From Massalongia carnosa (taxonomy: Eukaryota), in assembly GCA_965645245.1 (NCBI GenBank), contig OZ287072.1:2418001-2482000 (forward strand): DNA of 64,000 bases. Reading direction: 5' to 3'. Below, piece by piece: positions 8,074 to 64,000 of this stretch. Position numbers and translations under genes: made by a program. Under the pieces are notes generated by a model. That model did not search any database, was not told the origin of the DNA, and was given only the letters and a program-made list of their open reading frames with translations. Within the stretch, counting starts at the first letter, position 1; every line of letters starts with the position of its first letter.

Positions 8074-8239
8074 TAATAGCTGGAGCCTACTTTGGGCTTC
8101 AGCCTCGTTCTAAAATCTGTTCGTCAACATATTAACCGTTACGTTCGTGGAGTCTTTCACAATTGGTCGGTCGCTGGCTTTGAAACGCAAAGAGCGGAAG
8201 CAACACCCACGATCTATGTGAGTCTGAAAAGCCGTCGAC

Positions 8240-37880: not shown

Positions 37881-39060
37881 GACTCAGTGCTCAAAGACGC
37901 TACCGTACCGGCTCAAAGACGCATTTTCAACATTTTACACCTCAACTTCGACACGTCAACAATCAACAACATAATGGTCAATTCATATTCAGCTATCGGG
38001 GATCGAATTGACAGTGCGTTACACGATGGTTTGTATACTAATTGTCGAACTGCAGTCATAGCTTTGACGTTGCCCCGCGTACGGTTCAAAAACTATGGAA
38101 TGGAGGCAACTCCAAAAGCAGTCGACCTAGGACCAACAAAGCTCTAACGGATGAGCAAGAACAAGCTGTTCGTGACTACATCGAGCGATTGGACAAGGCC
38201 AACATGTGTGCGCGACCCAAATTTATCGTTGGGGCTGCAAATTATCTGATTCGTTTTGAGAATTGTACAATACTCTTGGTCATCAGTGGCTGAAGCGATT
38301 TCTTGATCGAAATTCCGAGTTTCATGTACGAAAGCAGAAGCCTCTCGCGGTCGATCGAAAAATAGTCACGACGTTAACGATATTGTTGAATATTTCAGCA
38401 AATTAGAAAGGGTGATGAGGGAAAAGGGAATAACGGAGCTGGATGTATGGAATACGGACGAAACAGGCTTTCGAATTGGATGCGGACGAGCTCAAATAGT
38501 AATTACCTTCGACCCACGAAAGCCTCTTCGTATGACTGATCCGGATAATCGTGACTACATTACTTCTGTAGAGTGTATCAGCTCAGCCGGTGACGTTATT
38601 CCACCATTACTTATTCTTTCGGGTATTCATATTCTTCATAAATGGTGCCAACACAACGATCTCGACGGAGAGACGTTGATTGGGACCAGCGAGACCGGCT
38701 ATTCAAATGACGATTTAGCCATGGATTGGCTTCGTCATTTCATCGAGCATACACGGACTAAAAGACGTGGAGCTTGGCTACTTCTAGTCATCGACGGGTT
38801 TAGGTCTCATTTAACCATTCCGTTTTTGAAGCTGGCCACTGAAAATCAGATCTTTCTATTTCGTCTTCCAGCACATTCTACTCATTTGACTCAGCCATTA
38901 GATGTAGGTGTTTTTCAGCCGTACAAACATTATCATGCTGAGGCCATTGATCATGCGATACGAATGGGAGACACGGAATTTGGAAAATTGGAATTTGTAG
39001 CCGCATTCCAGGTATTTCGCAACAAGACATTCAAATCATCTACTATTCGTCATGCATCTC
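37881..39060 (+). mobile_element. Degenerate, 3'-truncated Fot1/pogo element (different family member)
   Basis: Motifs WNTDETGFRIG, LLVIDGF.SH and TQPLDVGVF, with frameshifts. A GCTCAAAGACGC direct repeat lies in the leader. The element abuts the LINE and the left boundary is approximate. Confidence 0.88.
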
Positions 39061-42000
39061 GACAATGGAGGATTTAAAGCATGAATAGAGTTCGTAATCA
39101 GGAATCGTTAAAATAGAGATCCGAGGGTTTTAGAAAACTTGAAGGAAAAGAACTCGAAACCACGAAATAGTCAACGACTTAGCGATCATATTAAGATGCT
39201 GATATCTCGGAGCAAATAAGATTTTATCGATAGATAAGTCGATAGGGACACGCATAGAACGGAAGGATACAACTTCTCAAAGCAACGCCGCTGCCGCCAC
39301 GGGGCGAGGTCGTGATGGACCCGCACTCCTAGCGAACAAAAATGTCAAGTCTCAACCGTCTTCCAAGGACAGAACACCTACACCGAAGGAAGCGCGACGC
39401 GCTCGAGAAATCACTGTTCACATGACGGAGAATGCAGATAACGAAAAAATAATGCTGATGCCAACCAAAGAGCTGGTAGAAACGTTGCAAAATGGAGCAA
39501 AAGGAATACGAGGAGTGTCGCGCTTGTTAAATGGCGACATAAGGATTCACACGGAGTCATTGGAGGCAAAGAAAACTCTGCAGGAAAAGACCGACTAGAC
39601 TCGCATGATGGCCGCCTCCGCAGCGGTGCATACTCCTACCTTAACCGTAAGGGCAAATGGAATCAAGGTGGAAAACATCAAAGTGGCGAATCAATCAACT
39701 GCTATCGCGTACCTGCAGGCCGCCAACGCACGCCTGCATCCTGATCTCAAGATCATCAAAGTAGCTTGGTCAGTCAAGGCCATCAGGGAGAAAAAAGCAT
39801 ACTCCATACTACACATGGAGGTCGCTACAACCGAGATAGCCAACCGGCTCATTACCGAGGGCCTGATGGAGGACTACGAAATAAAAGACTGTGAGCGTTT
39901 TACACGTGGTTGCACCATGACCCAATGGTTCAATTGTCAGAAATATGGCCACATAGGTAGATCATGTCGCAATCCCGCTGCTTGTGGTCACTGTGCCGGT
40001 GGACATCAAAGTAAAGAATGCAACTTGGAGACAACGGGGCAATACCGTCGATGTGCCGTATGCGGAGAGAAGGGACACGAGGCGTGGTCTACAGCATGCA
40101 AAATCAGAAAGGCTGAAAAGCGAAAAACCGAAATTGCTATGCAAAATCACGCTCCACTATACACAATCGCCCTTATTCCAGTTTCAAGGAGCGCCGACAC
40201 TCGCAGCTACACAAACGAACGAAATTTCGTCAACGTGGAAGATTGTGAACGGCAAGAAAAGAAAAATGCACAACGCGGGGCTCTCAGCCGACTCATCACC
40301 AGGCTCTCCCCGAGGAGAGCAAGTATCAACCTGGGCTAATATAGGCATTATGAATCCTGGAAACATGATCAAAGCCTTAGCAAAAGCAGCGCTAGGTAGA
40401 CCCCGCGCAGAATCCGTAGTAACGACAGGTACCCAGGCCACCCCAGTCACAGTGGTCGAAACCATGGAAATCCTATGAGGGACACAAAATCCCTCTCGAT
40501 ATTGCAGTATAATGTCAGAAATGACAGAGTGAGTGCAGACACAAACACCCAGGACTATGATATCATTGCAATACAGGAACCGTGGCGCAACTCATCCGCC
40601 CCCACATCGCTCAGTTCACATCAAAGTGGCTTTCACCTTCTATACCGCCCAGGAGGCGACACCAGAGTGTGCTTCTACAGTGGGTATGATTAAGTGTTCG
40701 TCATTTCGCGTAATTTTCGCGAAAAATCGCGTCTCCCCCAAACTCATCCTTTTCAACCCACCATCACCATGCCCAAACGAAGCCCATTGATCCCCATCTC
40801 TGCTAATAAGACCCCTCGAAGGGAGTTATCTACGTTTACAAAAGGTCAAATATCAGGCCTCGCCCGGGCGGGTTTAACACCCACTGAAATTCATCATCAA
40901 TTGAACGTCTCCCGCACCACCATTCAGAGCTTTTTGCAGAGAGAACAAACAGTTCCGTCTAGAGAAAACAGACCCCGATGCGGCCGGCCCCCTGTTGTTA
41001 CCCCTCGAGCGGTCAGATTCGTGCTGCGGTATGTTCGAATCAACCCAAAAACAAGTTGGAATCAGGTCAAAACAGCCTTGGGGTTGAAGATCTGCAGGCA
41101 GACGTTCAACAAGGTGCTCAAGCACAATGGGATAGCTCGTTGGATGGCCTTGAGGCGGCCTAAATTGACCCAGCTCTGGCAAAACTCCAACTGAATTGGG
41201 CACGAAAACACGAGGACTGGACGGTGGAACAGTGGAAAACTGTGATCTGGTCAGATGAGTCTTCTGTGCGAAGGGGTTCGGGCAAAGGCCGTGACTGGTC
41301 TTTTGGAACTCCTGATTAGAAATGGGATCGTGATAAGCTTCAGGAAGGTCCCAAAGGCAAGGCCTTTAGTATAATGATATGGGGGACATTTTGGGGATCG
41401 GGAAGGTCGGATCTTCATCTTTTGGAGCGGGATTGGGAGTCTAAAAAGCAAGGGTACTGAGTAAAGTCCTACATATAGGTTTTGGAGTCCAACTTGCTAG
41501 GAATATGGACGCCCGGTCTTGTTCTCATGCAGGATAATGCCCCATTCATGGAGCGAATAAAACAAAGGCGTGCTTTAAGGAATGGGGGATAGAGATAATG
41601 GACTGGCCACCCTACAGTCCCGACTTAAATCCCATCGAAAATCTTTGGGCCCTTCTCAAGAAAGAGGCCTACAAAGTTTATCCCGACATCAATTCTCTAG
41701 ATGGCAAGGGCGACGAGGCAGAATCCAAGCTGTTTAGCATTCTGCAGGAGTCATGGGGGAACATTCGTGAGGAGGTAATAGATGGACTGATTGCAAGCAT
41801 GCCCCGCAGGGTGGCAGCACTTATTGCTGCGGAGGGGTGGCATACAAAGTATTAGCACCACCAAATTCGGGTAGCAAATAGAGCACATATCAATCGATTA
41901 TTAATGCAATTTTGGAGGTTTCAAACGGTTGTTTGGGGGGTAGGGAATAGGTGGAACAAATGTGCTGTAAAAGGGAATTCTGGTTTTGGTGGGGTGTGCC

Positions 42001-45000
42001 GAAGACTTTTTCACAGCTAGTGTACATACATCAACGACCAATAGACACTGACAGCTGGGAAGTAGAATTTCCCTCGGCCGACATGTGCACGCTAAAAATA
42101 GAAAAATGCACCGAAGGCGTAGCGGAGGTGATCCATATACAATCCCTCTCCTGCCTCCTATTCGTCCCCCGACAGCCCTTCTACTTTATCGACCGCTCGG
42201 AGCATGCTAACCGAAGACGTGCATCATATCCTGCTTGGTGATTTCAGCATCATCCATTTTGGAACGGTCCTTCAAGACCTACACAACATGCTGCAGCTGA
42301 TCAATTGTTAGAAATCATCGATGAATTTAATCTCTCGCTAACATTGCCGAAAGGCACCGTAACATGGGAAGCAAGAAACACGTTTAGCACGATCGATCTA
42401 GTTTTCATGTCAGAACATCTAGTTGAAAGACTTGAACACTGCATGACCAGACCAGAATTAAATCAATCGTCCGATCATGTACCGATATCAACCCGCTCCT
42501 ACTCGGTAGCGAGTCGCAACCAAAAAGTAAACGCAAAACTTCTGAATTTGGAAAAATTAAGGGAAGCCGAGCGCCACGCACCTCCACCGACGTCTCCCCG
42601 CACACCTGTCGAGATCGATACATACACAGAATCGATTCAAAACTTCCTACAAAATGTCATCAATGCAGCCGTTCCATGGGCGAAACCTAGCGAATATGCT
42701 AAGCCTTTCTGGACAGAAGAGTGCAATATTGCCACCAAAGCCACACGAAAATTACGCCGCATATGGTCTGACACACGAGATCCAGCGGACTGGTCCAACT
42801 ACATGAAATCTAATGACAAGAAACAGAAAATTATCCAAAAAGCAAAGAGGACAAATTTTCGTCAAGAGATCAGTAAGGCTACCGAAACGTCTCAGGGTCT
42901 GTGGCGGCTAGCGAAATGGGCCAAAGACAAAAGTCACACAGCTAGAGAAGTACCCAAAATGCCGACTTTAAAGTTCAATGATCAAATAGTAGACACGTTC
43001 GATGAGAAAGCCGAAATGCTGAAAAGCATTTTCTTTCCCGCACCACCACCGGCCGGTTTAAGCGATATAGAAGGATCCTTCTATCCAGCATCGCCGCACT
43101 GTCCAATGATCATCACCAGGTCAGAAGTGTCGAAGGCCCTGCATCGGCTCAAGCCCGATAAAGCACCGGGTCCTGACGGCATATCTAATAGAGTACTCAA
43201 GGCATGCGCGGAAAAATTTGTTGAATTATTAATACCTCTGTTTCAGGCGTGCGTTACACTTTCGTACCATCCCCGAGCCTTCAAAATGGCAAACACAATA
43301 GCATTAAGAAAATAGACAAAGGAAATTACACCACGCCGAAGGCTTACCGACCAATTGCATTACTCAACACGCTCAGCAAAGTAATGGAATCTATCATAAG
43401 ATCAAAAATAACCTATTTAGCGGAAACACATCGGCTCCTACCCGACACACAGATGGGAGCGAGAAAGGGCAGATCTACGGAATCAGCTCTGGAGTTACTA
43501 ACCGAACAGGTTCACACGATTTGGGGACAATGAAAAGATAAAGTAGCCACACTTTTAAGCATGGACGTCGCCGGCGCGTTTGATACAGTTTCACATCAAA
43601 GACTAACGCACACTCTACGTAAAAGAAAAATCCCGAAATGGATCACTGATTGGTTAAGCAGCTTTTTAAATGATCGTAACACAACTCTAGCTATAAATCG
43701 AAAAGCGACCGGACGATTCGCGGTGAGAACTGGCATACCACAGGGCTCCATTCTCTCATCCATTCTTTATCTATTCTATAATGCGGACCTATATGAAATA
43801 TGTGAGCGACCAGGCACAAACACAAGTGCTATAGGATTTGTAGACGATGCCAACATTTTGGCATACGGAAAAAGCACCGAAGAGAATTGCAAGACTCTGG
43901 AGTCAATACACAGACAATGCGAAAAGTGGGCTTCCGACACGGATCCCTATTCGCTCCGACGAAGTACGAACTCATTCACTTGTCTAGAAATCCCAAAAGA
44001 TTCAATATGGCTGCATCCATCAACATTGCAAGCACCGAAATTGAACCTAAAACGGACATTAGAGTCTTAGGCTTACAAATTGACACCAAATTGAAATGGG
44101 GGCCGCACGTTCGCAAAACTCAAAAGAAAATGGTCAAACAATCCATGGCATTGACAAAAATCTCCACATCGACCTGGGGTGCCACCTTTACCAAAGCAAG
44201 GCAAGTTTACAGCGCCGTAGTGCGTCCGGTCATGACATACGGGTCAACCGTATTGCACATGCCCAAAGAAGTCAAAAAGTCAAAAACGTCAATTCGTAAA
44301 CTCTCCGTTATGCAAAACAATTGCCTTCGCACCATAACCGGTGCCTTTAAAGCCACTCCCATTCCAGTTCTTGAAGTAGAGACATACATAGCACCCATAG
44401 ATGTACACCTCGATACGTTACAGGCGCAGGCCAGACATCGACTCCGAACCGGAGGTCAATCGAAGGTCATTTCTTCCGCATGCAGCAAAATAGTTAACAA
44501 ACTCCGAGGCAAGGCAGGTCGCAAACGCCTTCAAAAATCCACTCCGGGAGAGCTAAAGCACACCTGGGCCCAAAACCTACTGATCGACGCAAAAATCGTT
44601 CAACCACCCAAAGCACACCCACCATGGTCCGACCCCCCCAGCGCATCTCCGCGAAGTCTCCGTAGCAGCATTGGCTCGTCAAAAACAAATGCAGACAGTT
44701 AAAGCACGACAGCTGAAAGTCTGGAACGACTCGTGGAGCGCATATCAAAATCGCGTCACCGAACCCTCCATAGCGCAATCAGTCCCACTGAGCAAAAAAT
44801 GACTGAAAATACACACGCTGCTAAAAAAGGCAGAAAGCGCCCTGACAACACAGATCCGCACCGGTAAGATCGGTCTAGCTGACTTGCTCTACCAGCGACG
44901 GTTCCCCGCCGTCACCTCACCGGCCTGTCCATGTGGCTGGCACAGACAAACTCCAGAACACGTAATCATGTTCTGTAGACTTATTCACATTAGAGAACAG

Positions 45001-48658: not shown

Positions 48659-49630
48659 CTACCCCAACCGCCCGTTTATAACAAGTTGATTGATGACGTT
48701 CTCGATGTTCGGTACCTGTTTCCTCGCACATCTCATCACACTCGACTGAGCGGAAATCTGCAATGCTAGAGCTCTTCTCATGTACGCGACCAACCCGGTA
48801 GAGATGTCATGAGTGCGGTCTGGTCCGGGGATGCTATCAAGCCCCTCCACTCTGAGAGCAGAGTAATGTTTCAAGATAGCCACCGTTGGCAATGGAGACC
48901 AGTTTTTTAGGAAAGATTTCCATGCCATGTCTAAGCGGATCTTCTCAAAGTCTTTGTCAAGCCTTTTGGCATTGTACCCAACATAGTCGATCTCGGTCTT
49001 AACGCTGACATGCTTGGACGTTGCTGTAACCTTCCTCATGAATTCCGAAGCAAGTCCCGCCCCTGTTGCGCTGCCATTGAAGCCAACATTTAGCTTTGCT
49101 TGAAATTCGTCGAGAATATCCGAGCTTTTGGCTGTGTGGACACATATCGCGAAGAATGTCGATTGACACGTCCAGCCGGAGATGCAGTACTCGCCGAATC
49201 TTCGAACAAAGTCCTCAGCGCTGCTTGCTTTTGATTTGGCTTCCTCCGTAAACTGCAAGGAAGCATCGAAGTTGTCGGTGGGCAGTGTAGCCGTACATCG
49301 AATGATAGTCACCATGCTGGTTGTATTACATTTCGCCGTCTGCAAAAGCTCCATTGAGAGTATCACAGATATCAACATATGTATCACAGATGCGCTAGCA
49401 CTCGATTCGAGAATCCTCATGATGTCTTCTTGGTTTCGCATCGTCTCGTACGTAAGATGGATCTTGCAGATGTTTTTGCCTGGCGTCACCGGATGCTTGA
49501 ATTCTCGAAAAGGTGACTGGAGGGTATTGTGCCCGGCCAGATTATATCCATCTCCAATCTTCATGCCGTCTTCCCAAGCAATCCTGCCGTCTGTGCGCAC
49601 GTAGTTGCTGATCCCAGATTCAATGGCCAT
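48659..49630 (-). CDS. MACPF/CDC-like putative pore-forming protein (323 aa, intronless)
   Basis: Motif order resembles MACPF: WEDGMKIGDGYN, a Ser/Ala-rich segment (ILESSASASV), the signature-like FVRRFGEYCISGWTCQSTFFA, a second Gly/Ser/Ala-rich segment (KLNVGFNGSATGAGLASEF), and W..F....PLPTVAILKHY. The canonical GG is replaced. No signal peptide is evident. Confidence 0.65.
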   Translation of the reverse strand: MAIESGISNYVRTDGRIAWEDGMKIGDGYNLAGHNTLQSPFREFKHPVTPGKNICKIHLTYETMRNQEDIMRILESSASASVIHMLISVILSMELLQTAKCNTTSMVTIIRCTATLPTDNFDASLQFTEEAKSKASSAEDFVRRFGEYCISGWTCQSTFFAICVHTAKSSDILDEFQAKLNVGFNGSATGAGLASEFMRKVTATSKHVSVKTEIDYVGYNAKRLDKDFEKIRLDMAWKSFLKNWSPLPTVAILKHYSALRVEGLDSIPGPDRTHDISTGLVAYMRRALALQISAQSSVMRCARKQVPNIENVINQLVINGRLG

Positions 49631-52600
49631 GATTCTCCTGTCGCGCTTGCAATGATTTCAATGTGAAGTTTTTATAAAACAGAGAAGGTATTAACTCTAA
49701 GGTATTATGATTGTAGGATAAGCTTTATTTGCAACAGATGAGACGATGTAAGACGATGATTTGGATTGAATGCTGGATACTACGATCCTTTTAATGCTGC
49801 GCTCCATCATGAAAAGATTATTCAGTCGCAAGGACTCAAGCTTCTGCGCCATGGTCCAGAGCAACAATAATAGAATGAGAAACAGATGTTCAACTCATGA
49901 ATACCATCTTCTCGAACTGAAATAGCATCATGCGTTATTGTTGAAAATCAAGATGAAAGCAACAGTCCACACATCATAACTATCTTGGTTCGAGTTTACC
50001 AGGCTGAGTTTATTATAAGACGATTATTAATAACTTTGTCTATTTTGAGTCTAATAACGGAAGATTCCGAGTTTGGATCGTGGTGGGGTAACTTAAAGTC
50101 GATCGTGATCAGATGCTTAGGGGGGTTTTTTGTCCTATCCGCACGACGTCTTTGACGATATAAACGATAATCTAACGCAGTTCATTGCGGATGTTTATTA
50201 GTCAACGACTTGCAGATTGAGATGTCTTAAATAAGTAAACACAAAGTTTTTATCCTTCTCCAAAGACATGTACTCCATAATCAAATGAATGGTATACTGT
50301 TTCATCTGATTGTGTAAGATCACTTCAAATCGCTTACTTTCAACTAGACAACCGAAGCAACGAGCTTGATGAATTGTCATCTTTATCCGTCTCGAATCAA
50401 AATCATGACGATGATCCTATTGAATACGATGACCAGGCCACATTAATTGGAAAGAGGCAATCCTACTGCATCAAGTTCAGGACAGCCTATAGCTCGCAGA
50501 GCATACTTCTGGATGATTTCTGCTATACTTTGCTTCTCTTTACCATCTCAATTCGTCGAGCCTCTGGCTTACAGCTCCGTGAGATAGGTACCATATTACG
50601 TGGATGGAGCGGTACTGCTTGACTTGAAAAATAAATGATGCCGGGCCGGGTTATTCATGGCAATGGCATGATATGTATCCAAGTCAACGATCGGGCATTG
50701 TATTGCGCGCGGAGGACTGGCGAATCTAGTATCTGCAACCTTGGTCGAACCTCGTACCTCGAGGACTTCTCGAAGAGTTATATTATCATGAAGTGCTGTA
50801 CATACCGGTCAATACAACAGTAGCAAAGATCACGATGCCTATTTTCAACTTTAAATCCTTCAATTTGGTCATTGATATAGCCACCTTGCCATCTGATATT
50901 GCAGAGAGTGTTAAGGGCGTTGGATTCCTGATTATCAGTACCCGCGATAACCCTATGCAGTTTAATCCGATCGAGGGGAACGTTGCGTTGTTGAAAAATA
51001 AACCGTGAAGGAGCTATGCATCGAAGTATCCCACTGAACTGATATTCGCCGGAGGAAAGTACGTTGCGGTTTTGGTTCAGAGAGTGATAGGGCCAAACTG
51101 TTCATCTGTTACGTCAACTTTTGGCCAGCTCCCAGTACCTGTTCCTTTACTGCTTACACTTTATTACATACAACAATAACGAGACAATCTGTTACGCATT
51201 CGCCAAGCCGAATGTCTAAATTAATAAAACGTGACAAGAATTAGCAATAACAAGGAGAATTTAATCAGCTCCGAGAACAAAATTATTGAAAAATTCAGTT
51301 TATAGTTGTTTTTCTTTTTTTCGAAACAAGAATTCTAATATCACGTTAGGGAGTCCCGGGATATCTCTATGTAGTTTCCACGAACTGGCGAAAGTATATA
51401 AAGATTTACTGATTAATGGAGTGCTGCTTTACACCCGCGCTAGCGACTATTTCAGCCAACTGCTCTCCTAGTATTCCTACATGTTCTCTCTCTGCTCTCT
51501 CCTGTTCTTTTTAAATTCTCTTATACTCCCCTCTCTTCTCCCTCTTGCCCCCTTTCCCCTACTATTGTTGTGATGTAGCCCTAGATTGCTTATTCGAGTA
51601 CTCAGGATTAGGACAAGCAGCTGGGGGCATGGAGCCTCGTCGAATGCAAGCAGATGGAGAGAGTATACATAATATACATAGACCACATAGCCTCAATGGA
51701 TTCTCACTTCCCAGCGGTCGCAGGCCTGTGATCTGAGGTTCGAGCGACGTGCAGCTGCCCCAGGGGCACTGGTTGCGCGCGATACTACCCCCCGACGACG
51801 CTGCAGCGGCTACGCCTATGATGGAGCGTGAAGCATGTGCTCGAGCGAGGAATCGAGTATTTTTCCCCACCCGACCTTCCCTTCACAACAATGGACCGAG
51901 AAATTGCCGAAGGTGTAGAGAAACTTGAAGTTCTATATGACCATCTCAAGTGTTCAGCTTCTTAGTTCATTATAATATGATCCTCTGCAGCTATATCGTA
52001 TTCCCCATTAGACTCCACAAGACCTACAATCTTCACATCATCCTACTACAAGGCGTAAAAGCAGTTGATGATGAAACTCGCAGAATTCGGAATTGCCTGG
52101 ATTGGGAAGTACGCTCGAGGAGGCATGCATCGTTCACATAATTGATAGATCATACATTAGATCCTTCTAAGCCATCTGCGAAATCTGGTTCGCCTTGCGG
52201 ATTTGGTCAATAAAAATTGTTGATGCTCGTCAGATGAGGAGCTTTGTGTCAACTTTAGTAGGTTAGTATTTTTATGCAATTTGAGAGTCTGCTGGCTTAC
52301 CTTTCCCGAGTTGTCAATTATTTCCCCCTCATTCAGCTTAAAAATCGCAAGATTGTCCATCGCAAGAAGGGTGGTTGAATGTTCGCTTCCCAGCGTCCTC
52401 TGACGTGCCTCCAACGTCGTTTGTCTCAATTTCATTGCCTCCTGTTTGCGTCCTAAATCGCTATAACTAATTGCAAGATTGTTCATCGTCCTGAGAGTGT
52501 CCGGATGTTCGCTTCCTAGCGTCCTCTGATGTGCTTTCAACACCGTTTCGTTCAATTCCATTGCCTCCTGTTTGCGTCCTAAATCGCTATAACTAATTGC

Positions 52601-53461
52601 AAGACTGTTCATCGTATAAAGAGTGTCCGAATGTTCACTTCCTAGCGTCCACTGACGTGCCTCCAACGTCGTTTGTCTCAATTTCATTGCCTCCTGTTTG
52701 CGTCCTAAATCGCTATAATTATTTGCAAGATTGTTCATCGTCCTGAGAGTGTCCGGATGTTCGCTTCTCACCGACCTCTGACGTGCCTCTAACACTTTTT
52801 TTCTCAATTTCATCGCCTCCTGCAGCCGGCCATTCTCATGAAACGCAATCGCAAACCCCTCCGCCACACTAACACGATTAAGCTCTGAGTATTCGTCAAG
52901 AAACGGCTTATCTCTGCAAAGACTTATGCAAGACTCGATATGAGGCAGCAAAGACCGTCGGAAGCGATAGTCGATTAGCGCATATTCCCAAGACATGGTA
53001 GCAGCTAGGGTGGAACTGGTTATTATCCAGGAACATCTCTGAAGCTCTTCCGAGAGTCGGTCTCTGGCCCACACATGTACCAAAGGATGCATTGACATGC
53101 GACGCCCCGTTTCATCAATCCTTTTAGTATCTCTCTTTGTACCTAAATTTATAAGTGAGAAAGACGCAAGAAGATCTGCCGCTTCTCGAATCATTGTTGG
53201 ATCCCAATCTCCTGCTTTTTGTTGAGGTTGCATGTAAAACATATGAATTATGTCTTGAGACGAGTCTCCTCTCCTATAGTTATTTCTCCACGCCTGCTCA
53301 AATATGTCTTCGGTAATCCCATCGTAATGCAAGAAGCTAAATATTCGAAGGAGTTCCATAGCATTATGAGAAGTCTCGTCACGCTTCTTCTCGATTGCTT
53401 CGATGGATATCTCCCAGGTCGTGTACACGCTATATTTGTAATCGGAGTTCGCTTGAACTGA
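48949..53461 (-). repeat. Arm B of a second inverted duplication (partner 59490 to beyond 64000)
   Basis: Mirrored coordinates sum to 112949-112951. ORF translations are identical or nearly so outside the 52768-53461 portion. Confidence 0.96.
50298..52081 (+). repeat. 1.8-kb repeat R1, containing a decayed plus-strand coding relic
   Basis: Direct copy at 55597-57380 (more diverged) and inverted copy at 60870-62652 (near-identical). Confidence 0.93.
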
Positions 53462-55371
53462 ACGATGCATTAGCAGTTTTTGCCGACGACGGGTGTACAC
53501 GTCACAGTATTCTTCGATGTTACAGAGACCCCGCCGTATATATGCGCCGGCTTGAGTGATTGCAAGCGCTAAAAATCCCAACGTCTGGATTACAGGCTTT
53601 GCCTTCCTTCGTGCATCCTCATCAGCAGTATCTTCCGCCCCAGCAGCTTTCAACAGAAGCGTCACGGCCTCGTCCATGTTCAGTTGTCCGAGCTCGCACG
53701 AGCCTACAGTTGAGTGGATCTTACAGTCAGGATTGCGAGTAGTGAGCAGGATGGAGCCTCTATTGCCTGTCGGAAAGAAGTCGGAGACGTCTAGAGACGG
53801 GTCATCGGCGTTGTCAATGATCAGCAGCCAGGGATCTTGAATATTTGACAACCATAGTCTTACAGCCTTAGGGTCCTCTCCCACTCCACACGTTCGAGAT
53901 ATTTCCAGAAACCCTTGTTGAGCTGTAATGTAGTTACTCGCATCGATCCAGAAGATGCCCCAAAACCTAACCTTCAGCATCAGTCCTGTAATAGACACAA
54001 GCCCGAAAGCTCTCGGGTTTAACCACTTACCTTTCCCGATAATCTTGAGCGAATTTAAGACAGGCTTGAGTCTTTCCTGAGCCTCCTAGGCCAAACAAAA
54101 CAAACCTTTTCTGCTTGGAAGGCATCTTTTCATTGTCGAAGGGTAAACACCCTTCAGAGATGTTTTGAATTAAGTCATCGCGGCCAGTAAATATCGTACT
54201 TAAGTTGAAAGGAACACAGTAATGTTTGTTATAGGACGAGACACTGCAAAGATCTAGATTCACATGAGCAAAATATATATGCAAAATCATTTTAAATGAG
54301 TACTTTGGTTGAATCTACGTACAGGATTTATTTGAAAGAATACTATCTTGTTCCTTTATCATCCTACGAACCCTCTTGAAAAGCTTCTCATACACCTCGT
54401 CCTCGCGCTCCATGAACTTGCACATCTCTTCGTGGTTTGCGTCCACTGGAATCTGTTCTTCTCCGTCGATCTCTAACAGTGCAGAATGTTTCTCCACGAT
54501 CTAGTAAAAATTGTTCTGTTGGTCAAGTTCATATTTATAAGCAAAGTTCTCATCTTGGTGCTTACTAAAGTAGTAAGCATCTTCATTGGCTTCATCTCGT
54601 AGAAGCTATACACCTGATATTTTGGTAGCTGAAATCTAAAGTTAGTCCTAAGTGACATCAATGCCTCACTGTTCACTTGCAAGGCATTGACAAGGCGTGG
54701 CGATGGTTTGTTCAGAACAGCCGTAGCAAGAGTTGCAAGGACCTTTCCGTATGCTGCTTTTTCGCTTCCCCGATGAGGAGTTCCTAGAAACACAATCCCG
54801 ATTGTGGACTCGCTGATGCTGTTGTATCGATGCTCAAGTTTTGCCTGAAACAGCGCCTGGATCACGCAACATTAGACACACGCCTCTCGATCAAACTTAG
54901 CACTGACTTGTTTAATCACTATTCCGCCGAGCGAATGTCCGACAAATATAATGGGACGGCGCAGCTCCTAAGAAATAGCTCAGCCTTAGCGTCTTCGGGA
55001 TCTAATGAATATCGGCAACCCACATCATCTTCCTCGCGCTTATCAATCAAACCGCTAATCAAACTCCTTGCATGATCTATGATATCTGCAGTGGTGTTCC
55101 CGAATGCCGCATCAGCATTGTATCCAAATGTCATGACCCGAGCATTAGGTACGTCGTGTGGAAGGAAGTCTTTGAGCCAGAAGGCATTCGTCTGACGGCT
55201 CGTCCAAGTGTTCTTCGGGTCTCCATTGAGGCCATGAACCGCAACGATACTGAGTAGAAGACGTAAGTATATCGGTATGTTACAGGAGCGGCGATGTATA
55301 AAGGCTCACTCAGCCTTGATGACCTCCGACTTCCCAGCGTCTTTTGATGGATATAAAACCCGTAAGCCCAT
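52157..55371 (-). CDS. NLR3: complete paralog with 4 TPR units
   Basis: Same exon layout at a constant 21361-bp offset from NLR2. GHSLGG, GLGGSGKT and WLLIIDNADD are intact and the native tail ...RRTRFRRWLRRI is present. Confidence 0.92.
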
Positions 55372-55596
55372 GTCGACGGCTTTTCAGACTCACATAGATC
55401 GTGCGTGTTGCTTCCGCTCTTTGCGTTTCAAAGCCAACGGCCGACCAAGTGTGAAAGACTCCGCGAACGTAACGGTTAATATGTTGACGAACATATTTTA
55501 GAACGAGGCTGAGCAGCTGAAGCCCAAAGTAGGCTCCAGCTATTACGCGAGCGGCTTTCCAACTTTGTGAAACGTCAACCGTATCAGAAGGGATAT

Positions 55597-57380
55597 TGTT
55601 TCATCTGATTGTGTGAGGTCACTTCAAATCGCATACTTTCAACTTGACAACCGAAGCAGCGAGTTTGATGAATTGTCATCTTCATCCGTCTCGAATCAAA
55701 ATCATGATGATGATCCTATTGAATACGATGACCAGGTCAAATTAATTGGAAAGAGGCAATCCTACTGCATCAAGTCCAGGACAGACTGTAGCTCGCAGAG
55801 CATACTTCGGGATGATTTCTGCTATACTTTGCTTCTATACCATCTCAATTCGTCGAGCCTCTGGGTTACAGCTCCGTAAGATAGGTACCATATTACGTGA
55901 ATGGAGCTGTACTGCTAGACTTGAAAATACTTGCTGCCGGGCCGGGTTGTTCATGGCAATGGTATATATAATATGTATCCAAGTCAGCGATCGGGCCCTG
56001 TGTTGCCCGCGGCAGGACTAACGAATCTAGTATCTGCAACCTTGGCCGAACCTCGTACCTCGAGGACTTCTCGAAGAGTTATATCATCATCGAATACTAC
56101 ACCGGTCAATACAACATTAGTAAATATCACGATGCCTGTTTTCAACTTAGAATCCTTCGATTGGGTCATTGATATAGCCGCCTTGCCTCCTGGTATTGTA
56201 GAGAGTGTTAAAGGCGCTGAATTCCTGAATATCAGTACCGGCGACAACCCTATGTAGTTTAATCCGATCGAGGGGAACGTTGCGTTGTTGAAAAATAAAC
56301 CGTGAAGAAGCCATGCGTCGAAGTATCCCACTGAACTGATATTCTCCGGAGGAAAGTACGTTGCGGTTTTGGTTGAGAGAGTGATAGGGCCAAACTGTTC
56401 ATCTGTTACGTCAACTTTTGGCCAGCTCCCAGTACCTGTTCCTTTACTGCTTACACTTTATTACATACAACAACAACGAGACAATCTGTTATGCATTCGC
56501 CAAGCCGAATGTCTAAATCAATAAAACGTGACAAGAATTCGCAATAACAAGGAGAATTTAATCAGCTCCGAGAACAAAATTATTGAAAAATTCAGTTTAT
56601 AGTTATTTTTCTTTTTTTCGAAACAAGAATTCTAGTATCACGTTAGGGAGTCCCGGGATATCTCTATGTAGTTTCCACGAACTGGCGAAAGTATATAAAG
56701 ATTTACTGATTAATAAAATGCTGCTTTACACCTGCGCTAGACACTATTTCAGCCAACTCCTCTCCTAGTGTTCCTTCATGTTCTCTCTCTGCTCTCTCGT
56801 GTCCTTTTTATACTCTCTTATACTCCCCTCTCTGCTCCCTCTTGCCTCCTTTCCCCTACTATTGTTGTGGTGTAGCCCTAGATTGCCTATTCGAGTACTC
56901 AGGGTTAGGGCAAGCAGCTGGGGGTATGGAGCCTCGTCGAATGCAAGCAGATGGAGAGAGCATACATAATATACATAGACCACATAGCCTCAATGGATTC
57001 TCACTTCCCAGCGGTCGCAGGCCTATGATCTGAGGTTCGAGCGACGCGCAGCTGCCCCAGGGGCACTGGTTGCGCGCGATACTACCCCCCCGACGACGCT
57101 GCAGCGGCTACGCCTATGATAGAGCATGAAGCATAAGCTTGAGTGAGGCATTGAGTGTTTCCCCCCACCCGACCTTCCCCTTCACACTAATGGACCGGGG
57201 AATTGCTGAAGGTGTGGAAAAACTTGAATTTATATATGACCATCTCAAGTGTTCAGCTTCTTAGTTCATTATAATGTGATACTCTGCAGCTATATCGTAT
57301 TCCCTATCAGACTCCACAAGACCTAAAATCTTCACATCATCTTACTACAAGGCGTAAAAGCAGTTGATGATGAAACTCGC
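55597..57380 (+). repeat. 1.8-kb repeat R2 (direct copy of R1)
   Basis: Runs from TGTTTCATCTGATT to GATGAAACTCGC, with parallel ORFs at an offset of about 5297 bp. Confidence 0.93.
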
Positions 57381-57532
57381 TCCGTCAAGAGACCTTTCTT
57401 AACAATATACCTTCCAGGTCCAACCCCCCTCCTCCCCCCAGCCCTGCTCGCCATGATCGGCTACCGGAAGCTGTTCCCACATTGAAAACCGGACGCTAAT
57501 TAACACCCTTCTACAGCTTAAGCCCATCTATT

Positions 57533-57793
57533 TGTTAGATGAGACAGCCATCCTATGTGCCGTGCCAGACGGCAACATAACGGCTTGGGAATAACGTCTC
57601 AAGTGATCCGCACACGGCTAGCTAATGAGGTGGTACGGCAGGGAGATTCAAGGCAAACCTGCCCTGCCGCTGTGCCTGCTCTTTATCTTATTCATCTCTC
57701 ATCTATCTAGCTATATAAACATAGTAGATAGCCACCTAGATAGAATAATCAATCCTTCCCACACATACTATTACCTACCTATTTAACTCAACA
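57533..57793. mobile_element. Solo LTR (261 bp)
   Basis: TGTT...AACA termini, 5-bp TSD CTATT (57528-57532 and 57794-57798), and an internal TATATAAA. Confidence 0.85.
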
Positions 57794-58353
57794 CTATTCA
57801 CCCCGGCCTGGCTGCAGAATATCATCCATGATGCGATATTGAACTAATTTATGCAGAGCCCAAAGTGTCCGGTGTCGACACGGGTGCTGGGGGCTAGGCA
57901 CAAGAGGTAGAAGGTAAAACCAGCAAACGAAGGACTTAGGGCCTCATTTGGGCAGTAGGAGCTCGTGACATTATGCAGGCTGCTTCCGTCGGTTCGGAGT
58001 GACGTGTCTTCCACGATACTCCGCCAGCAATGGGCCAAGACAGGCCCATGGACTGGGAGGCTGTCATTGAGGGCTATTTCCCGTTTATGGAAAGTTGATG
58101 TTTTCTGCCTCTGACCTCGCGCTTCAGCGACTGTGATGATTATCGGATGGATGATCGAGTCTGTCAGTGGTTGCCTGCAAGAGTGAGGGTTTGTATATGC
58201 TGAAGCAATTCATTTGGAGGCCCATATATACTGAAGCTGATACCCACGGTAGGTGGCCGTGATAGGCTATCGAGGACAGCACCAAGCAACTTGCGGCCCC
58301 GATATCCACAGCCTAATCCATGATTATTAAGTTGTGAACTTCAGAGACATTGT

Positions 58354-59489
58354 CTACCCAACCGGTCCGAGCTCATGAGGAATCCAAGTGCCGTCCGATT
58401 CCCAAGTTACAGGCTTTGTGAACTTTCCCACGGAACTTTCGAGCAAAAGCTCGTATTTCACATAAGCGAAACAGAAGTACTCGAGCTCCGCCTCTTTATA
58501 TCGCGTCCAAGTAAAAAAATCTTCGTCGTGATCTTCGGAGCCACGGAAGCGCTCGACATCGTTTACTAAAACGCTCATGCCATCGTATCCGCTTTGCATA
58601 TCACTCCATGAGAAGGTGATACTATTGTTGATGCTATCGATAATGGGCATAGCAATTTGGGGGATCGGACTGTTGAAGTCGTCCCCGAAAAATTCTCTGA
58701 GTGTTTACAGGATGCTATCGAAGCACTAGCGCGCGATTCCGTTGATGAACAAGCCCACGAGGAGGCCTTGGTATAAAAGACTTGGGCGTGTCTGCAGTGT
58801 TGTGCCCGGGAGGAGTAAAAGTGTCAACATATAATGATGGATTCGAACGTTCGTGTGCGGGATTGCCACCAGCGCTAGAATTAGCAGGCCAAGACAGGTG
58901 TAGAAAGTTAGATATCGAGGCATTCTACCTTCGATCCTAAACGCCCAGGCCTGGAAGATCGCAATGAGAAGGATAGCGAGGACAATTATTACCACGGTAG
59001 GTATTGGCCCTGGTTGCTGAAGGTCGTGGAGCGTCAGACGCTGGATGGCAGCCTCTCAAATGTGAGGTTACTGGACGCGCCAAGCCAACAACCTCCTAGC
59101 CATAGAATAGTCTTCTCAACTTGTGCGGTCAAGCGGTTGAGGCTGTGATGGATGCAAAAATGATAAATGAAAAGTCCAACGAATACTGCAGGGAGGAAGC
59201 CACGAAAGGCCCATGAGACGACGGACATTTAATCTTCAAAAGCAGGAGGATCCGATGCTAGTGGAACGAAGAAATATATCTGACAAACGAAGAACCAAAG
59301 AATACTGACGGTGACGTGGTAAATATGGACACCGTGACCGTGAAGAGCACTGTGATAACAAGCAGCCTCCACCGAGGATCGTTGCATTGAGCTGTATTCC
59401 CACTAGCGTCGTTCAAAAAGGTGAACGACAGGGGAAAGCTAGGGGTGAAATTAAGGCTCGAGATGCCGTTCGCTTCAATAGCTGGGAAC
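58354..59489 (-). pseudogene. Fungal LCCL-domain membrane protein, 3' half only
   Basis: Family-like motifs NGISSLNFTPSFPLSFTF..C.DPRW.LL, TAQVEKTILWLGGCW, RIHHY.L.LLLLPGT.LQTRPSLLYQGLLVGLFINGIAR and SVLVNDVERFRG. It has stops and frameshifts and is cut at the NLR4 junction. Confidence 0.8.
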
Positions 59490-60794
59490 TCAGTTCAAGC
59501 GAGCTCCGATTATAAATATAGCGTGTACACGACCTGGGAGATCTCCATCGAAGCAATCGAGAAGAGGCGTGACGAGACTTCTCATAATGCTATGGAACTC
59601 CTTCGAATATTTAGCTTCTTGCATTACGATGGGATTACCGAAGACATATTTGAGCAGGCGTGGAGAAATAACTATAGGAGAGGAGACTCGTCTCAAGAAA
59701 TAATTCATATGTTTTACATGCAACCTCAACAAAAAGCAGGAGATTGGGATCCAACAATGATTCGAGAAGCGGCAGATCTTCTTGCGTCGTTCTCACTTAT
59801 AAATTTAGGTAGAGAGAGCGATACCAAAAGGGTTGACGAAACGGGGCGTCGCATGTCAATGCATCCATTGGTACATGTGTGGGCCAGAGACAGACTTTCG
59901 GAAGAGCTTCAGAGATGTTCCTGGATAACAACCAGTTTCACCCTAGCTGCTACCATGTCTTGGGAATATGCGCTGACCGACTATCGCTTCCGAAGGTCTT
60001 TGCTGCCTCATATCGAGTCTTGCATAAGTCTTCGCAGAGATAAGCCGTTTCTTGACAAATACTTAGAGCTCAATCGTGTTAGTGTGGCAGAGGAGTTTGT
60101 GTTGGCGTTTCGTGAGAATGGCCGGCTGCAGGAGGCAATGGAATTGGGAGAAAAGGTGTTGAAGGCACGTCAGAGGACGCAGGGAAGCGAACATCCGGAC
60201 ACTCTCAGGACGATGAACAATCTTGCAAATAATTATAGCGATTTAGGACGCAAACAGGAGGCAATGAAATTGAGACAAACGACGTTGGAGGCACGTCAGT
60301 GGACGCTAGGAAGTGAACATTCGGACACTCTTTATACGATGAACAGTCTTGCAATTAGTTATAGCGATTTAGGACGCAAACAGGAGGCAATGGAATTGAA
60401 CGAAACGGTGTTGAAAGCACATCAGAGGACGCTAGGAAGCGAACATCCGGACACTCTCAGGACGATGAACAATCTTGCAATTAGTTATAGCGATTTAGGA
60501 CGCAAACAGGAGGCAATGAAATTGAGACAAACGACGTTGGAGGCACGTCAGAGGACGCTGGGAAGCGAACATTCAACCACCCTTCTTGCGATGGACAATC
60601 TTGCGATTTTTAAGCTGAATGAGGGGGAAATAATTGACAACTCGGGAAAGGTAAGCCAGCAGACTCTCAAATTGCATAAAAATACTAACCTACTAAAGTT
60701 GACACAAAGCTCCTCATCTGACGAGCATCAACAATTTTTATTGACCAAATCCGCAAGGCGAACCAGATTTCGCAGATGGCTTAGAAGGATCTAA
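59490..60794 (+). pseudogene. NLR4: headless paralog (late NB-ARC/winged-helix region, 4 TPR units and tail)
   Basis: Homology starts abruptly at TCAGTTCAAGCG (SVQA). It lacks the hydrolase and Walker A/B, but the reading frame is still open to the native stop. Confidence 0.9.
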
Positions 60795-63318
60795 TGTATG
60801 ATCTATCAATTATGTGAACGATGCATGCCTCCTCGAGCGTACTTCCCAATCCAGGCAATTCCGAATTCTGCGAGTTTCATCATCAACTGCTTTTACGCCT
60901 TGTAGTAGGATGATGTGAAGATTGTAGGTCTTGTGGAGTCTAATGGGGAATACGATATAGCTGCAGAGGATCATATTATAATGAACTAAGAAGCTGAACA
61001 CTTGAGATGGTCATATAGAACTTCAAGTTTCTCTACACCTTCGGCAATTTCTCGGTCCATTGTTGTGAAGGGAAGGTCGGGTGGGGAAAAATACTCGATT
61101 CCTCGCTCGAGCACATGCTTCACGCTCCATCATAGGCGTAGCCGCTGCAGCGTCGTCGGGGGGTAGTATCGCGCGCAACCAGTGCCCCTGGGGCAGCTGC
61201 ACGTCGCTCGAACCTCAGATCACAGGCCTGCGACCGCTGGGAAGTGAGAATCCATTGAGGCTATGTGGTCTATGTATATTATGTATACTCTCTCCATCTG
61301 CTTGCATTCGACGAGGCTCCATGCCCCCAGCTGCTTGTCCTAATCCTGAGTACTCGAATAAGCAATCTAGGGCTACATCACAACAATAGTAGGGGAAAGG
61401 GGGCAAGAGGGAGAAGAGAGGGGAGTATAAGAGAATTTAAAAAGAACAGGAGAGAGCAGAGAGAGAACATGTAGGAATACTAGGAGAGCAGTTGGCTGAA
61501 ATAGTCGCTAGCGCGGGTGTAAAGCAGCACTCCATTAATCAGTAAATCTTTATATACTTTCGCCAGTTCGTGGAAACTACATAGAGATATCCCGGGACTC
61601 CCTAACGTGATATTAGAATTCTTGTTTCGAAAAAAAGAAAAACAACTATAAACTGAATTTTTCAATAATTTTGTTCTCGGAGCTGATTAAATTCTCCTTG
61701 TTATTGCTAATTCTTGTCACGTTTTATTAATTTAGACATTCGGCTTGGCGAATGCGTAACAGATTGTCTCGTTATTGTTGTATGTAATAAAGTGTAAGCA
61801 GTAAAGGAACAGGTACTGGGAGCTGGCCAAAAGTTGACGTAACAGATGAACAGTTTGGCCCTATCACTCTCTGAACCAAAACCGCAACGTACTTTCCTCC
61901 GGAGAATATCAGTTCAGTGGGATACTTCGACGCATAGCTCCTTCACGGTTTATTTTTCAACAACGCAACGTTCCCCTCGATCGGATTAAACTGCATAGGG
62001 TTATCGCGGGTACTGATAATCAGGAATCCAACGCCCTTAACACTCTCTGCAATATCAGATGGCAAGGTGGCTATATCAATGACCAAATTGAAGGATTTAA
62101 AGTTGAAAATAGGCATCGTGATATTTGCTACTGTTGTATTGACCGGTATGTACAGCACTTCATGATGATATAACTCTTCGAGAAGTCCTCGAGGTACGAG
62201 GTTCGACCAAGGTTGCAGATACTAGATTCGCCAGTCCTCCGCGCGCAATACAATGCCCGATCGTTGACTTGGATACATATCATGCCATTGCCATGAATAA
62301 CCCGGCCCGGCATCATTTATTTTCAAGTCAAGCAGTACCGCTCCATCCACGTAATATGGTACCTATCTCACGGAGCTGTAAGCCAGAAGCTCGACGAATT
62401 GAGATGGTAAAGAGAAGCAAAGTATAGCAGAAATCATCCAGAAGTATACTCTGCGAGCTACAGGCTGTCCTGAACTTGATGCAGTAGGATTGCCTCTTTC
62501 CAATTAATGTGGCCTGGTCATCGTATTCAATAGGATCATCGTCATGATTTTGATTCGAGACGGATAAAGATGACAATTCATCAAGCTCGTTGCTTCGGTT
62601 GTCTAGTTGAAAGTAAGCGATTTGAAGTGATCTTACACAATCAGATGAAACAGTATACCATTCATTTGATTATGGAGTACATGTCTTTGCAGAAGGATAA
62701 AAACTTGTGTTTACTTATTTAAGACATCTCAATCTGCAAGTCGTTGACTAATAAACATCCGCAATGAACTGCGTTAGATTATCGTTTATATCGTCAAAGA
62801 CGTCGTGCGGATAGGACAAAAAACCCCCCTAAGCATCTGATCACGATCGACTTTAAGTTACCCCACCACGATCCAAACTCGGAATCTTCCGTTATTAGAC
62901 TCAAAATAGACAAAGTTATTAATAATCGTCTTATAATAAACTCAGCCTGGTAAACTCGAACCAAGATAGTTATGATGTGTGGACTGTTGCTTTCATCTTG
63001 ATTTTCAACAATAACGCATGATGCTATTTCAGTTCGAGAAGATGGTATTCATGAGTTGAACATCTGTTTCTCATTCTATTATTGTTGCTCTGGACCATGG
63101 CGCAGAAGCTTGAGTCCTTGCGACTGAATAATCTTTTCATGATGGAGCGCAGCATTAAAAGGATCGTAGTATCCAGCATTCAATCCAAATCATCGTCTTA
63201 CATCGTCTCATCTGTTGCAAATAAAGCTTATCCTACAAGCATAATACCTTAGAGTTAATACCTTTACTGTTTTATAAAAACTTCACATTGAAATCATTGC
63301 AAGCGCGACAGGAGAATC

Positions 63319-64000
63319 ATGGCCATTGAATCTGGGATCAGCAACTACGTGCGCACAGACGGCAGGATTGCTTGGGAAGACGGCATGAAGATTGGAGATG
63401 GATATAATCTGGCCGGGCACAACACCCTCCAGTCACCTTTTCGAGAATTCAAGCATCCGGTGACGCCAGGCAAAAACATCTGCAAGATCCATCTTACGTA
63501 CGAGACGATGCGAAACCAAGAAGACATCATGAGGATTCTCGAATCGAGTGCTAGCGCATCTGTGATACATATGTTGATATCTGTGATACTCTCAATGGAG
63601 CTTTTGCAGACGGCGAAATGTAATACAACCAGCATGGTTACTATCATTCGATGTACGGCTACACTGCCCACCGACAACTTCGATGCTTCCTTGCAGTTTA
63701 CGGAGGAAGCCAAATCAAAAGCAAGCAGCGCTGAGGACTTTGTTCGAAGATTCGGCGAGTACTGCATCTCCGGCTGGACGTGTCAATCGACATTCTTCGC
63801 GATATGTGTCCACACAGCCAAAAGCTCGGATATTCTCGACGAATTTCAAGCAAAGCTAAATGTTGGCTTCAATGGCAGCGCAACAGGGGCGGGACTTGCT
63901 TCGGAATTCATGAGGAAGGTTACAGCAACGTCCAAGCATGTCAGCGTTAAGACCGAGATCGACTATGTTGGGTACAATGCCAAAAGGCTTGACAAAGACT
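63319..64000 (+). CDS. MACPF/CDC-like protein, copy 2 (partial, runs off the window)
   Basis: ATGGCCATTGAA at 63319 and a near-identical mirror of 48949-49630, open to the window edge. Confidence 0.65.
   Translation, partial: MAIESGISNYVRTDGRIAWEDGMKIGDGYNLAGHNTLQSPFREFKHPVTPGKNICKIHLTYETMRNQEDIMRILESSASASVIHMLISVILSMELLQTAKCNTTSMVTIIRCTATLPTDNFDASLQFTEEAKSKASSAEDFVRRFGEYCISGWTCQSTFFAICVHTAKSSDILDEFQAKLNVGFNGSATGAGLASEFMRKVTATSKHVSVKTEIDYVGYNAKRLDKD

Follow-up and report, generated by a model that had tools for sequence, protein, structure and literature searches.

A stretch of 64,000 nucleotides from the genome of Massalongia carnosa (assembly GCA_965645245.1, contig OZ287072.1, positions 2,418,001 to 2,482,000), referred to here as the window, contains four related genes of the NOD-like receptor (NLR) type, three of them full-length (NLR1, NLR2 and NLR3) and one truncated at its 5′ side (NLR4). 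Comparison of the 64-kb window with itself, which defined the gene set and the repeats in this one genome rather than in a population, revealed that NLR3 is, in this assembly, a true mosaic composed of paralog sequences: it follows NLR2 up to the first unit of its tetratricopeptide repeat (TPR) array and NLR4 from that point on. A first-pass annotation, made from the letters of the DNA, had read this mosaic as the replacement of a sensor module. The mosaic is rather more likely to have been made by ordinary homologous repair, that is, by ectopic gene conversion among clustered fungal NLR paralogs. Its polarity is probably the reverse of a sensor swap, the newcomer in NLR3 being the NLR2-type stretch (at least 750 identical bp) and not the sensor.

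A phase switch in the first TPR unit of NLR3

NLR3 is encoded on the minus strand, from an ATG at 55371 to a stop codon at 52157 (its homology span in the self-comparison is 55596-52079); it carries four TPR units followed by a tail and appears intact. NLR4 is encoded on the plus strand at 59490-60794, with homology reaching 60872, and comprises a helical DUF7779 region, four TPR units and the tail. The two genes point away from each other in an inverted repeat whose arms, at 48949-53461 (minus strand) and 59490-64000 (plus strand), are 98.8% identical over 4513 alignment columns. The right arm continues beyond the end of the window, and the alignment stops at 48949 solely because the partner arm meets the window end at 64000, so that the left arm may extend further to the left. 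Between 53462 and 52768, NLR3 and NLR4 differ at 42 positions (about 6%); from 52767 to 51049 there is no difference in 1719 bp; and from 51048 to 48949 there are 15 differences (about 0.7%). For 15 arm differences, the chance that all of them fall in the outer 2100 of the 3819 bp is 1.3e-4.

A four-way table of variable sites showed that NLR3 has the letter of NLR2 at all variable sites between 53500 and 52768, whereas from 52749 on it equals NLR4 and NLR2 differs. The triplet test gave the same picture, with 41 of 41 informative sites being NLR2-like (53448-52768) and the 44 that follow all being NLR4-like (52749-52357). The probability of such a perfect order of sites is 1/C(85,41), or 3e-25, meaning that the phase switch is significant and that both parental types lie in the same window. 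The alignment bore out what the first-pass annotation had seen by eye, including its peptides: KKRDE, GTKRDTKRID, ALIDYR and EGFAIAFH are found in NLR2 and NLR3, and KRRDE, GRESDTKRVD and EEFVLAFR in NLR4.

The NLR2-type part of NLR3 measures 2.83 kb (52768-55596, minus strand), and its last 750 bp (53519-52768) are identical to NLR2. On the other side, the NLR4-identical tract (51049-52767, minus strand; partner 60184-61902) takes in the rest of the TPR array, the tail, the stop codon and 1.1 kb of the 3′ flank, and the agreement of array, tail and flank with NLR4, described beforehand, holds without exception along its 1719 bp. The two zero-difference tracts, one to each parent, adjoin at the junction. 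The site tables confine the switch to 52750-52767 (minus strand), the 18-bp invariant core of TPR unit 1, which encodes SEHPD. This 18-mer, GAAGCGAACATCCGGACA, is present at 52750-52767 on the minus strand and at 60184-60201 on the plus strand, exactly where the earlier note had placed it and its mirror image. The word is not peculiar to the junction, however: it occurs 15 times in the window, since most TPR units of all four genes have it as their conserved SEHPD core. The switch thus fell at the most recombination-prone word common to all arrays, and a breakpoint in a repeat core is what recombination or gene conversion among paralogs with near-identical repeats, the process already invoked in the first reading, is expected to leave.

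The head of NLR3 shows 27 mismatches to NLR2 in 2081 bp (1.3%), with no gap columns and with no mismatch in the last 750 bp. Approximately half of the 27 mismatches are private to NLR3 and half are common to NLR1; because of these private and NLR1-shared sites, the head of NLR3 is a distinct copy and not a collapsed NLR2. Further patches are visible within it: sites at 55385-55109 are NLR1-like, and those at 54648-54566 are private. The junction itself falls within a stretch of 2.47 kb that holds no NLR3-private variant. This would suit an artefact of assembly or polishing, in which paralog reads mixed into the consensus produced the junction or the identical tracts. Chimeric repeats are indeed reported to arise in short-read assemblies of NLRs with high internal conservation (HIC), in the part of one study that deals with such assemblies (PMC12222747), and the junction was not seen in an independent data set among the contigs listed. 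Against this, the window's own protein is found on a contig of 2.85 Mb, which suggests a long-read assembly, and the 18 bp shared at the switch are too short for an assembler to jump. Moreover, the private sites of the head, together with the flank F′ that only NLR3 has on its 5′ side (6.8% from the related unit F, described below), would anchor long reads well. The chance that the mosaic is an artefact is therefore a small one.

Contigs of other isolates or lineages provided a second view of the locus. Logan contigs of four runs (X1, X2, X4 and X5) were compared over 52450-59750, taking the presence of a contig as informative and its absence as uninformative, and without reading depth ratios as copy numbers. 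Contigs of all four runs show an NLR2-type gene that departs at 55596 into the 5′ flank of NLR1 and NLR2, and a contig of X1 departs at 52746 into the first unit of NLR2. Among the contigs listed, none bridges the NLR3-form junction at 52750-52767 or the joint between F′ and NLR3 at 55596, which is not counted as absence of NLR3; the bins 55622-55865 have no cover in X1, X4 and X5. At sites 53084, 53137, 53139 and 53162, all four runs carry the letters of NLR1 and NLR4 in otherwise NLR2-type sequence. The NLR2 and NLR3 genes of the window therefore share a short lineage-specific patch at 53084-53162, and exchange of short tracts must be common among these genes.

Direction of the exchange and origin of NLR4

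Outside the junction, the arms of the inverted repeat are 99.3-100% identical for at least 3.8 kb, and their homology runs 694 bp further inward at 94%. Within these same 694 bp NLR3 shows 100% identity to NLR2, which extends to 53519. The cheapest account of this combination is that NLR2 sequence overwrote NLR3 after the duplication. The starting point would have been an NLR3 gene that lay beside F′ and had a TPR array, a tail and a flank F of its own. An inverted partial duplication of the 3′ half of NLR3 (from 53461 outward, at least 4.5 kb) across the 6-kb spacer would have followed, yielding an NLR4 that was headless from birth. Later, a break at or close to the beginning of the NLR3 TPR array would have been repaired by copying, the head-side end taking NLR2 as template (at least 750 bp identical) and the tail-side end taking the NLR4 arm (1719 bp identical), until both new strands met in the 18-bp SEHPD core common to all units. 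The product would be an NLR2 helical region fused to the own sensor of NLR3, the latter re-homogenised with NLR4. We infer this order and direction of events, and their union in a single repair, from the way the tracts are laid out: the two abutting zero-difference tracts, each flanked by ordinary divergence from the same partner, would fit one recent repair event with two donors, and they suggest it. NLR4 would be a by-product of this history and at most a passive repair template, holding no cassette of alternative specificities, and it would probably stand as a record, or fossil, of the earlier helical region of NLR3.

The start of NLR4 bears on its origin. Its homology to the other NLR genes sets in at 59490, within the helical region that follows the nucleotide-binding oligomerisation domain (NOD), and the sequence upstream is unrelated. 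The gene has neither hydrolase domain nor P-loop and keeps a frame open over 59391-60794, whose first in-frame ATG lies at 59463, in agreement with the initial description of a headless open copy. A contig of X5 (3154 nt) matches 57351-59486 and then continues for 1184 nt that have no match in the window, which places a rearrangement breakpoint at 59487-59490. As NLR4 starts at most 3 bp from a structural breakpoint between lineages, it was probably born truncated, in an inverted duplicate of the 3′ half of NLR3, rather than being an old gene. The open frame is weak evidence for function, because the non-identical part of NLR4 is only about 40 substitutions away from its paralogs and the remainder does not differ from NLR3. 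The changes private to NLR4 comprise 7 synonymous and 15 non-synonymous ones, and the resulting omega of about 0.6 (22 sites in 693 bp) is a value with which constraint cannot be separated from drift.

A second line of evidence comes from a 1.8-kb unit, F, which is present in three copies with sharp ends. F is the 3′ flank of NLR3 (50287-52078, minus strand) and F″ the 3′ flank of NLR4 (60873-62663, plus strand; 0.39% from F). The third copy, F′, is older (6.7-6.8% from F and F″; 6.8% from F) and lies directly upstream of NLR3 (55587-57380, minus strand). F begins 3 bp past the end of the homology between NLR1 and NLR3. F′ stops exactly at the end of the F homology and is joined to the 5′ boundary of the NLR gene via a microhomology of about 10 bp, which can be read directly in the window. 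The resulting F-NLR-F layout looks like an old replicative template-switch insertion. The position of F′ directly upstream of NLR3 ties F-type sequence to the NLR3 locus. No open reading frame (ORF) with a Pfam match was found in F among the ORFs scanned, the Pfam scan covering ORFs of at least 100 aa.

Two other processes were considered. A simple unequal crossover between NLR2 and NLR3 is incompatible with the upstream flank of NLR3, which is F′ and not the flank of NLR2. Repeat-induced point mutation does not qualify as the dominant source of the differences, given transition/transversion ratios of 1.5-2.1 in four comparisons; F and F′ show a mild CpA excess (34 of 82 transitions).

The alternative put forward in the first-pass annotation has the opposite direction. 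According to it, an NLR2-like NLR3 received TPR array, tail and 3′ flank in one event from an older headless NLR4, which would take a long conversion or a break-induced replication starting in TPR unit 1. The closeness of the NLR3 head to NLR2 across all 2081 bp, at only 1.3% divergence, is what such a transfer predicts, as is the fact that all sequence 3′ of 52767 is of NLR4 type (99.3-100%) for at least 3.8 kb, while the 1719-bp tract without differences indicates a recent exchange between the arms that may have gone in either direction. However, NLR4 begins at a rearrangement breakpoint and hence resembles a copy and not an old gene, and F′, joined to NLR3 at the exact end of the F homology, argues that the F-type flank belonged to the NLR3 locus. 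The replaced tract would also have to be at least 3.8 kb long and leave the window, and the 0.7% divergence of the outer arms would still need a separate, earlier duplication. Replacement of the whole sensor module is thus unlikely, although its chance is not negligible; with NLR3 equal to NLR2 over the inner 694 bp, it is the head side that seems to have changed. The cautious fallback of the same annotation, a single historical recombination event, comes close to the ectopic conversion favoured here.

It is also conceivable that NLR4 is the converted gene. NLR3 would then be an unmixed, NLR2-like gene whose array diverges fast by shuffling of its own units, and an unseen paralog would have overwritten the inner 694 bp of NLR4. 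Arrays of near-identical repeats evolve faster than heads, and the drop in identity between NLR2 and NLR3 would need no swap; moreover, no gene in the window explains the 22 private sites of NLR4 in 693 bp. Yet no donor is seen. A protein search with NLR4 as query, restricted to longer proteins, gave 1721 matches at E ≤1e-30 (7999 scored candidates). The top match was the window's own 923-aa protein (78%), followed by Geoglossum-type proteins at 62-66%, and the 7999 scored candidates included no full-length NLR4-type protein that was near-identical. Metagenome contigs contributed 14 loci with a top identity of 57%, none of them from a close relative; a lichen metagenome is among the public runs in which this stretch is present. 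Conversion of NLR4 would leave the 100% identity of NLR2 and NLR3 over the 750 bp beside the junction unexplained, and the conversion tract would have to extend to the very edge of the NLR4 homology. Its chance is slim.

More far-reaching is the idea of a standing diversification device, in which the headless copy serves as a silent donor cassette or the head-bearing 6-kb spacer inverts between the two arrays. The inverted geometry, with the head in the spacer and the arrays in the arms, lends itself to such a device, and the recent exchange between the arms and the open frame of NLR4 are compatible with it. Nevertheless, the window holds a single headless copy and not several differing silent donors, and array, tail and stop codon of this copy are identical to those of NLR3, which means that no alternative specificity is stored, while a flip of the spacer would leave the protein unchanged. 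The omega of the NLR4-private changes is indistinguishable from drift. None of the four spacer ORFs scanned has a recombinase-like Pfam match, and the matches to DDE_1, integrase and reverse transcriptase (RT) domains elsewhere correspond to ordinary transposons. The joints listed for the four runs, which may lack the locus, are two in number, both in X5, and neither changes strand. Only the faintest probability can be given to a standing device. The silent cassette and the undescribed diversification system of the first-pass annotation therefore give way to a known kind of event, interparalog exchange. A related idea, to which we attach a very low probability, is that the inverted pair is maintained as a repair scaffold, in which breaks in the fragile NLR3 array are healed on one side from the headless arm and on the other from any full-length paralog. 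If it were true, heads and sensors of the clustered NLR genes would be re-assorted repeatedly, somatically or at meiosis, the head in the spacer could also flip between the arms, and the arrays would be identical at present because they are seen shortly after one such event.

Several points weigh against the favoured explanation, a two-donor conversion with the NLR2-type stretch as newcomer. Two separate conversions would also give abutting tracts. The polarity is deduced by parsimony, and both arms could stem from a third, unseen locus with NLR4-type sequence, or such a locus could have been a donor to NLR4. The arrangement in X5 could be derived and not ancestral, as the spacer of X5 is about 3% diverged (37 other letters and 15 gaps in 1255 nt). 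Further, the divergence values give no clean dates for the events: 6.8% separates F from F′ and the NLR4-type helical region differs from that of NLR1 and NLR2 by 5.1-5.8%, yet NLR1 and NLR2 differ from each other by 4.3% there. A molecular clock was rejected as decisive for the polarity, the helical region being more diverged than the head in every pair. Finally, as far as the window by itself can tell, the lack of an NLR3-private variant in the 2.47 kb around the junction leaves some chance of a consensus error.

Domain architecture and genomic surroundings

The architecture of NLR3 (52157-55371, minus strand) is predicted to consist of a sesB-like/DUF676 hydrolase head, a P-loop NOD, the helical DUF7779 region, the TPR array and the tail. 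A tblastn search with the closest outside homolog, P0002, placed the start of NLR3 at the ATG at 55371 (MGLRVLYPS...). P0002 aligns with NLR3 exon by exon and colinearly through the GHSLGG motif and the P-loop GLGGSGKT, with 64-70% identity between the NLR3 exons and P0002 residues 1-229, which include GHSLGG. P0002 matches the Pfam family DUF676, a putative serine esterase family, with 32.7 bits (cut-off 20.3), whereas exons 2 and 4 of the NLR3 head scanned alone gave no Pfam match at E values up to 5. By transfer from P0002, a sesB-like alpha/beta-hydrolase effector domain is thus predicted at the N-terminus of NLR3. The P-loop GLGGSGKT is present in NLR1, NLR2 and NLR3. In the NLR3 exon after the P-loop, NB-ARC scored 18.3 bits (E 0.0015), under its cut-off of 23.5, and in the large last exon DUF7779 scored 28.4 bits against a cut-off of 27. 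The C-terminal TPR repeats were confirmed by Pfam TPR_10, with E values of 6e-34 for NLR3 and 5.5e-38 for NLR4. In the portion of a survey of fungal NLRs that covers these domains, DUF7779 follows NB-ARC in such proteins and the combination sesB-like/NB-ARC/TPR figures among the architectures listed (Dyrka et al. 2014, PMC4986451); judged by its domain order, NLR3 would be of this type.

The TPR units are 42 aa (126 bp) long and number 11 in NLR1, 10 in NLR2 and four each in NLR3 and NLR4. The 19 internal units have a mean identity of 0.89 at the nucleotide level and 0.81 at the amino-acid level (range 0.64-0.98). Given that HIC is defined, in the pertinent part of the survey, by more than 85% identity between repeats across at least 100 aa (PMC4986451), the mean amino-acid value comes near this threshold and lies below it on average. 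Variation is found at unit positions 12, 13, 19, 32, 35, 36, 39 and 40 (4-8 residues each), while 19 of the 42 positions are invariant. The combination of variation at few unit positions with a variable number of units, characteristic of HIC repeats, is therefore present among the paralogs of the window. Units are as alike across genes (mean nucleotide identity 0.88-0.89) as inside genes (0.89-0.90), and the exact tracts common to different arrays are short (45-78 bp), a picture of ongoing shuffling of units. The NLR3 array as a contracted form of the present NLR2 array was ruled out, the best unit identity being 0.94 and the longest exact matches 45-78 bp.

The remaining two genes form a second inverted pair, which is convergent and includes their 5′ flanks (3013-6167 against 37400-34183). 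NLR1 (8074-12415, plus strand, start codon at 8240) is a full-length paralog and served as the reference for polarity. NLR2 (30166-34235, minus strand; homology from 34235 to 30205) is the likely donor of the NLR2-type tract. The NLR1 start codon is preceded, about 164 bp upstream, by an inserted pogo-like transposon (6168-8076, with DDE_1 and a Tc5 helix-turn-helix domain and an open frame of 592 codons at 6211-7989), and NLR2 is colinear over the empty site at 34181-34183. The C-terminal tail of NLR2 is replaced at 30205, and a short ORF adjoins it (region 29883-30205). This short ORF presumably corresponds to the end of a Tc1/mariner transposase, which we take it to resemble.

The cluster is rich in transposons. 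Pfam identified pogo-like DDE_1 genes at 6211-7989 and 38307-39077, copia- and gypsy-type polyproteins at 18-30 kb, and an endonuclease/RT of the long interspersed nuclear element (LINE) type at 42242-43315. Direct repeats of 450 bp (17804-18253 and 29488-29937, 98% identical) bracket about 11 kb that contain copia-type (RVT_2, rve) and gypsy-type (RVT_1, RNase H, chromo) polyprotein frames, and the bracketed stretch can be read as nested retroelements. Inside the copia-like gag frame there is a perfect 115-bp tandem duplication (19537-19766). Between the two NLR pairs, at 39599-44702, lie LINE-like remains with a zinc knuckle and the endonuclease/RT; the second pogo DDE_1 fragment, at 38307-39077, likewise lies between the pairs.

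The spacer between the arms of the NLR3/NLR4 repeat (6.0 kb, 53462-59489) holds the head of NLR3, F′, a high-copy element of 271 bp and minus-strand ORFs at 57844-59228. These ORFs appear to form one gene with hydrophobic stretches, and the four pieces scanned gave no Pfam match. Contigs of X1, X2 and X4 cover 57844-59228 without differences, and X5 covers it at about 3% divergence. The 271-bp element (57533-57803) shows very high contig depth in all four runs compared (X1, X2, X4 and X5) and is skipped by a contig of X5, which joins 57532 to 57804; this high-copy element is polymorphic for its insertion. A miniature inverted-repeat transposable element was ruled out, as the element lacks a terminal inverted repeat and occurs just once in the window.

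Relation to known exchange between NLR paralogs

Exchange of repeats between paralogous fungal NLR genes of high internal conservation is described in Podospora anserina, in the relevant part of one report for the WD40 genes het-e and nwd6 and the pseudogene nwdp-2 (PMC12222747), and in that of another for the TPR genes PaPnt1 and Pa_7_3550, together with NWD pseudogenes that retain nearly intact repeats (PMC13449251). As far as the corresponding text of these studies goes (PMC13449251, PMC12222747, PMC4986451), the genes of the window share with those of Podospora the near-identical repeat units (here of 42 aa) with variation at few positions, a variable number of units (here 11, 10, 4 and 4), the association with transposable elements, the presence of identical repeats in otherwise diverged paralogs, and the persistence of intact repeats in broken copies. 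In contrast to what that text describes for Podospora, the exchange in the window is resolved to an 18-bp interval, and the shared block is a whole array with its tail and flank in an inverted segmental duplication, and not single units. Also unlike those cases, the latest transfer most likely concerned the helical region, which lies upstream of the repeats, and a single genome provides the evidence.

A comparable combination of parts is known from plants. The Arabidopsis gene HRT has a leucine-rich repeat (LRR) domain like that of RPH8A and a coiled-coil (CC)-NB-ARC part like that of RPP8, according to the passage of the source that treats this gene (PMC6032283). HRT, as portrayed there, and NLR3 both have head and sensor from different linked paralogs, brought together by recombination and gene conversion in a cluster. 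NLR3 differs in that its sensor is made of TPR and not LRR units, in that it belongs to another kingdom, and in that it has no known ligand or phenotype.

The mosaic has several implications for the study of such genes. NLR3 is an example, resolved to the base pair, of interparalog recombination in fungal NLRs with near-identical repeats, and it extends the observations made in Podospora to a distant ascomycete lineage. It indicates that the helical region between NOD and repeats is exchangeable, besides the repeats themselves. A further lesson is that a sensor swap and a head swap look alike unless a third copy gives the polarity; a truncated duplicate that preserves an earlier state makes a single genome sufficient for inferring which way one conversion went. 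No paper was found in which an inverted headless duplicate is used to polarise a conversion, in searches that were aimed elsewhere and carry no claim of absence.

Cassette systems based on conversion, such as the variant surface glycoprotein (VSG) genes of trypanosomes, pilE/pilS of Neisseria and the pseudo-V genes of the chicken, rely on many diverse silent donors and on recurrent, often induced, switching. The NLR3/NLR4 pair resembles them in that a truncated copy without a promoter has sequence in common with an expressed gene and the two undergo conversion, but it offers a single donor, which does not differ from the expressed array, and gives no evidence that the event recurs. The concept of template switching and two-donor repair in gene conversion or break-induced replication comes from yeast. 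Although the event in NLR3 is read from one sequence, in which two separate events are possible, it has in common with two-donor repair in yeast that abutting tracts, each identical to a different ectopic donor, are joined in a short homology. The mosaic of NLR3 does not open a new kind of system.

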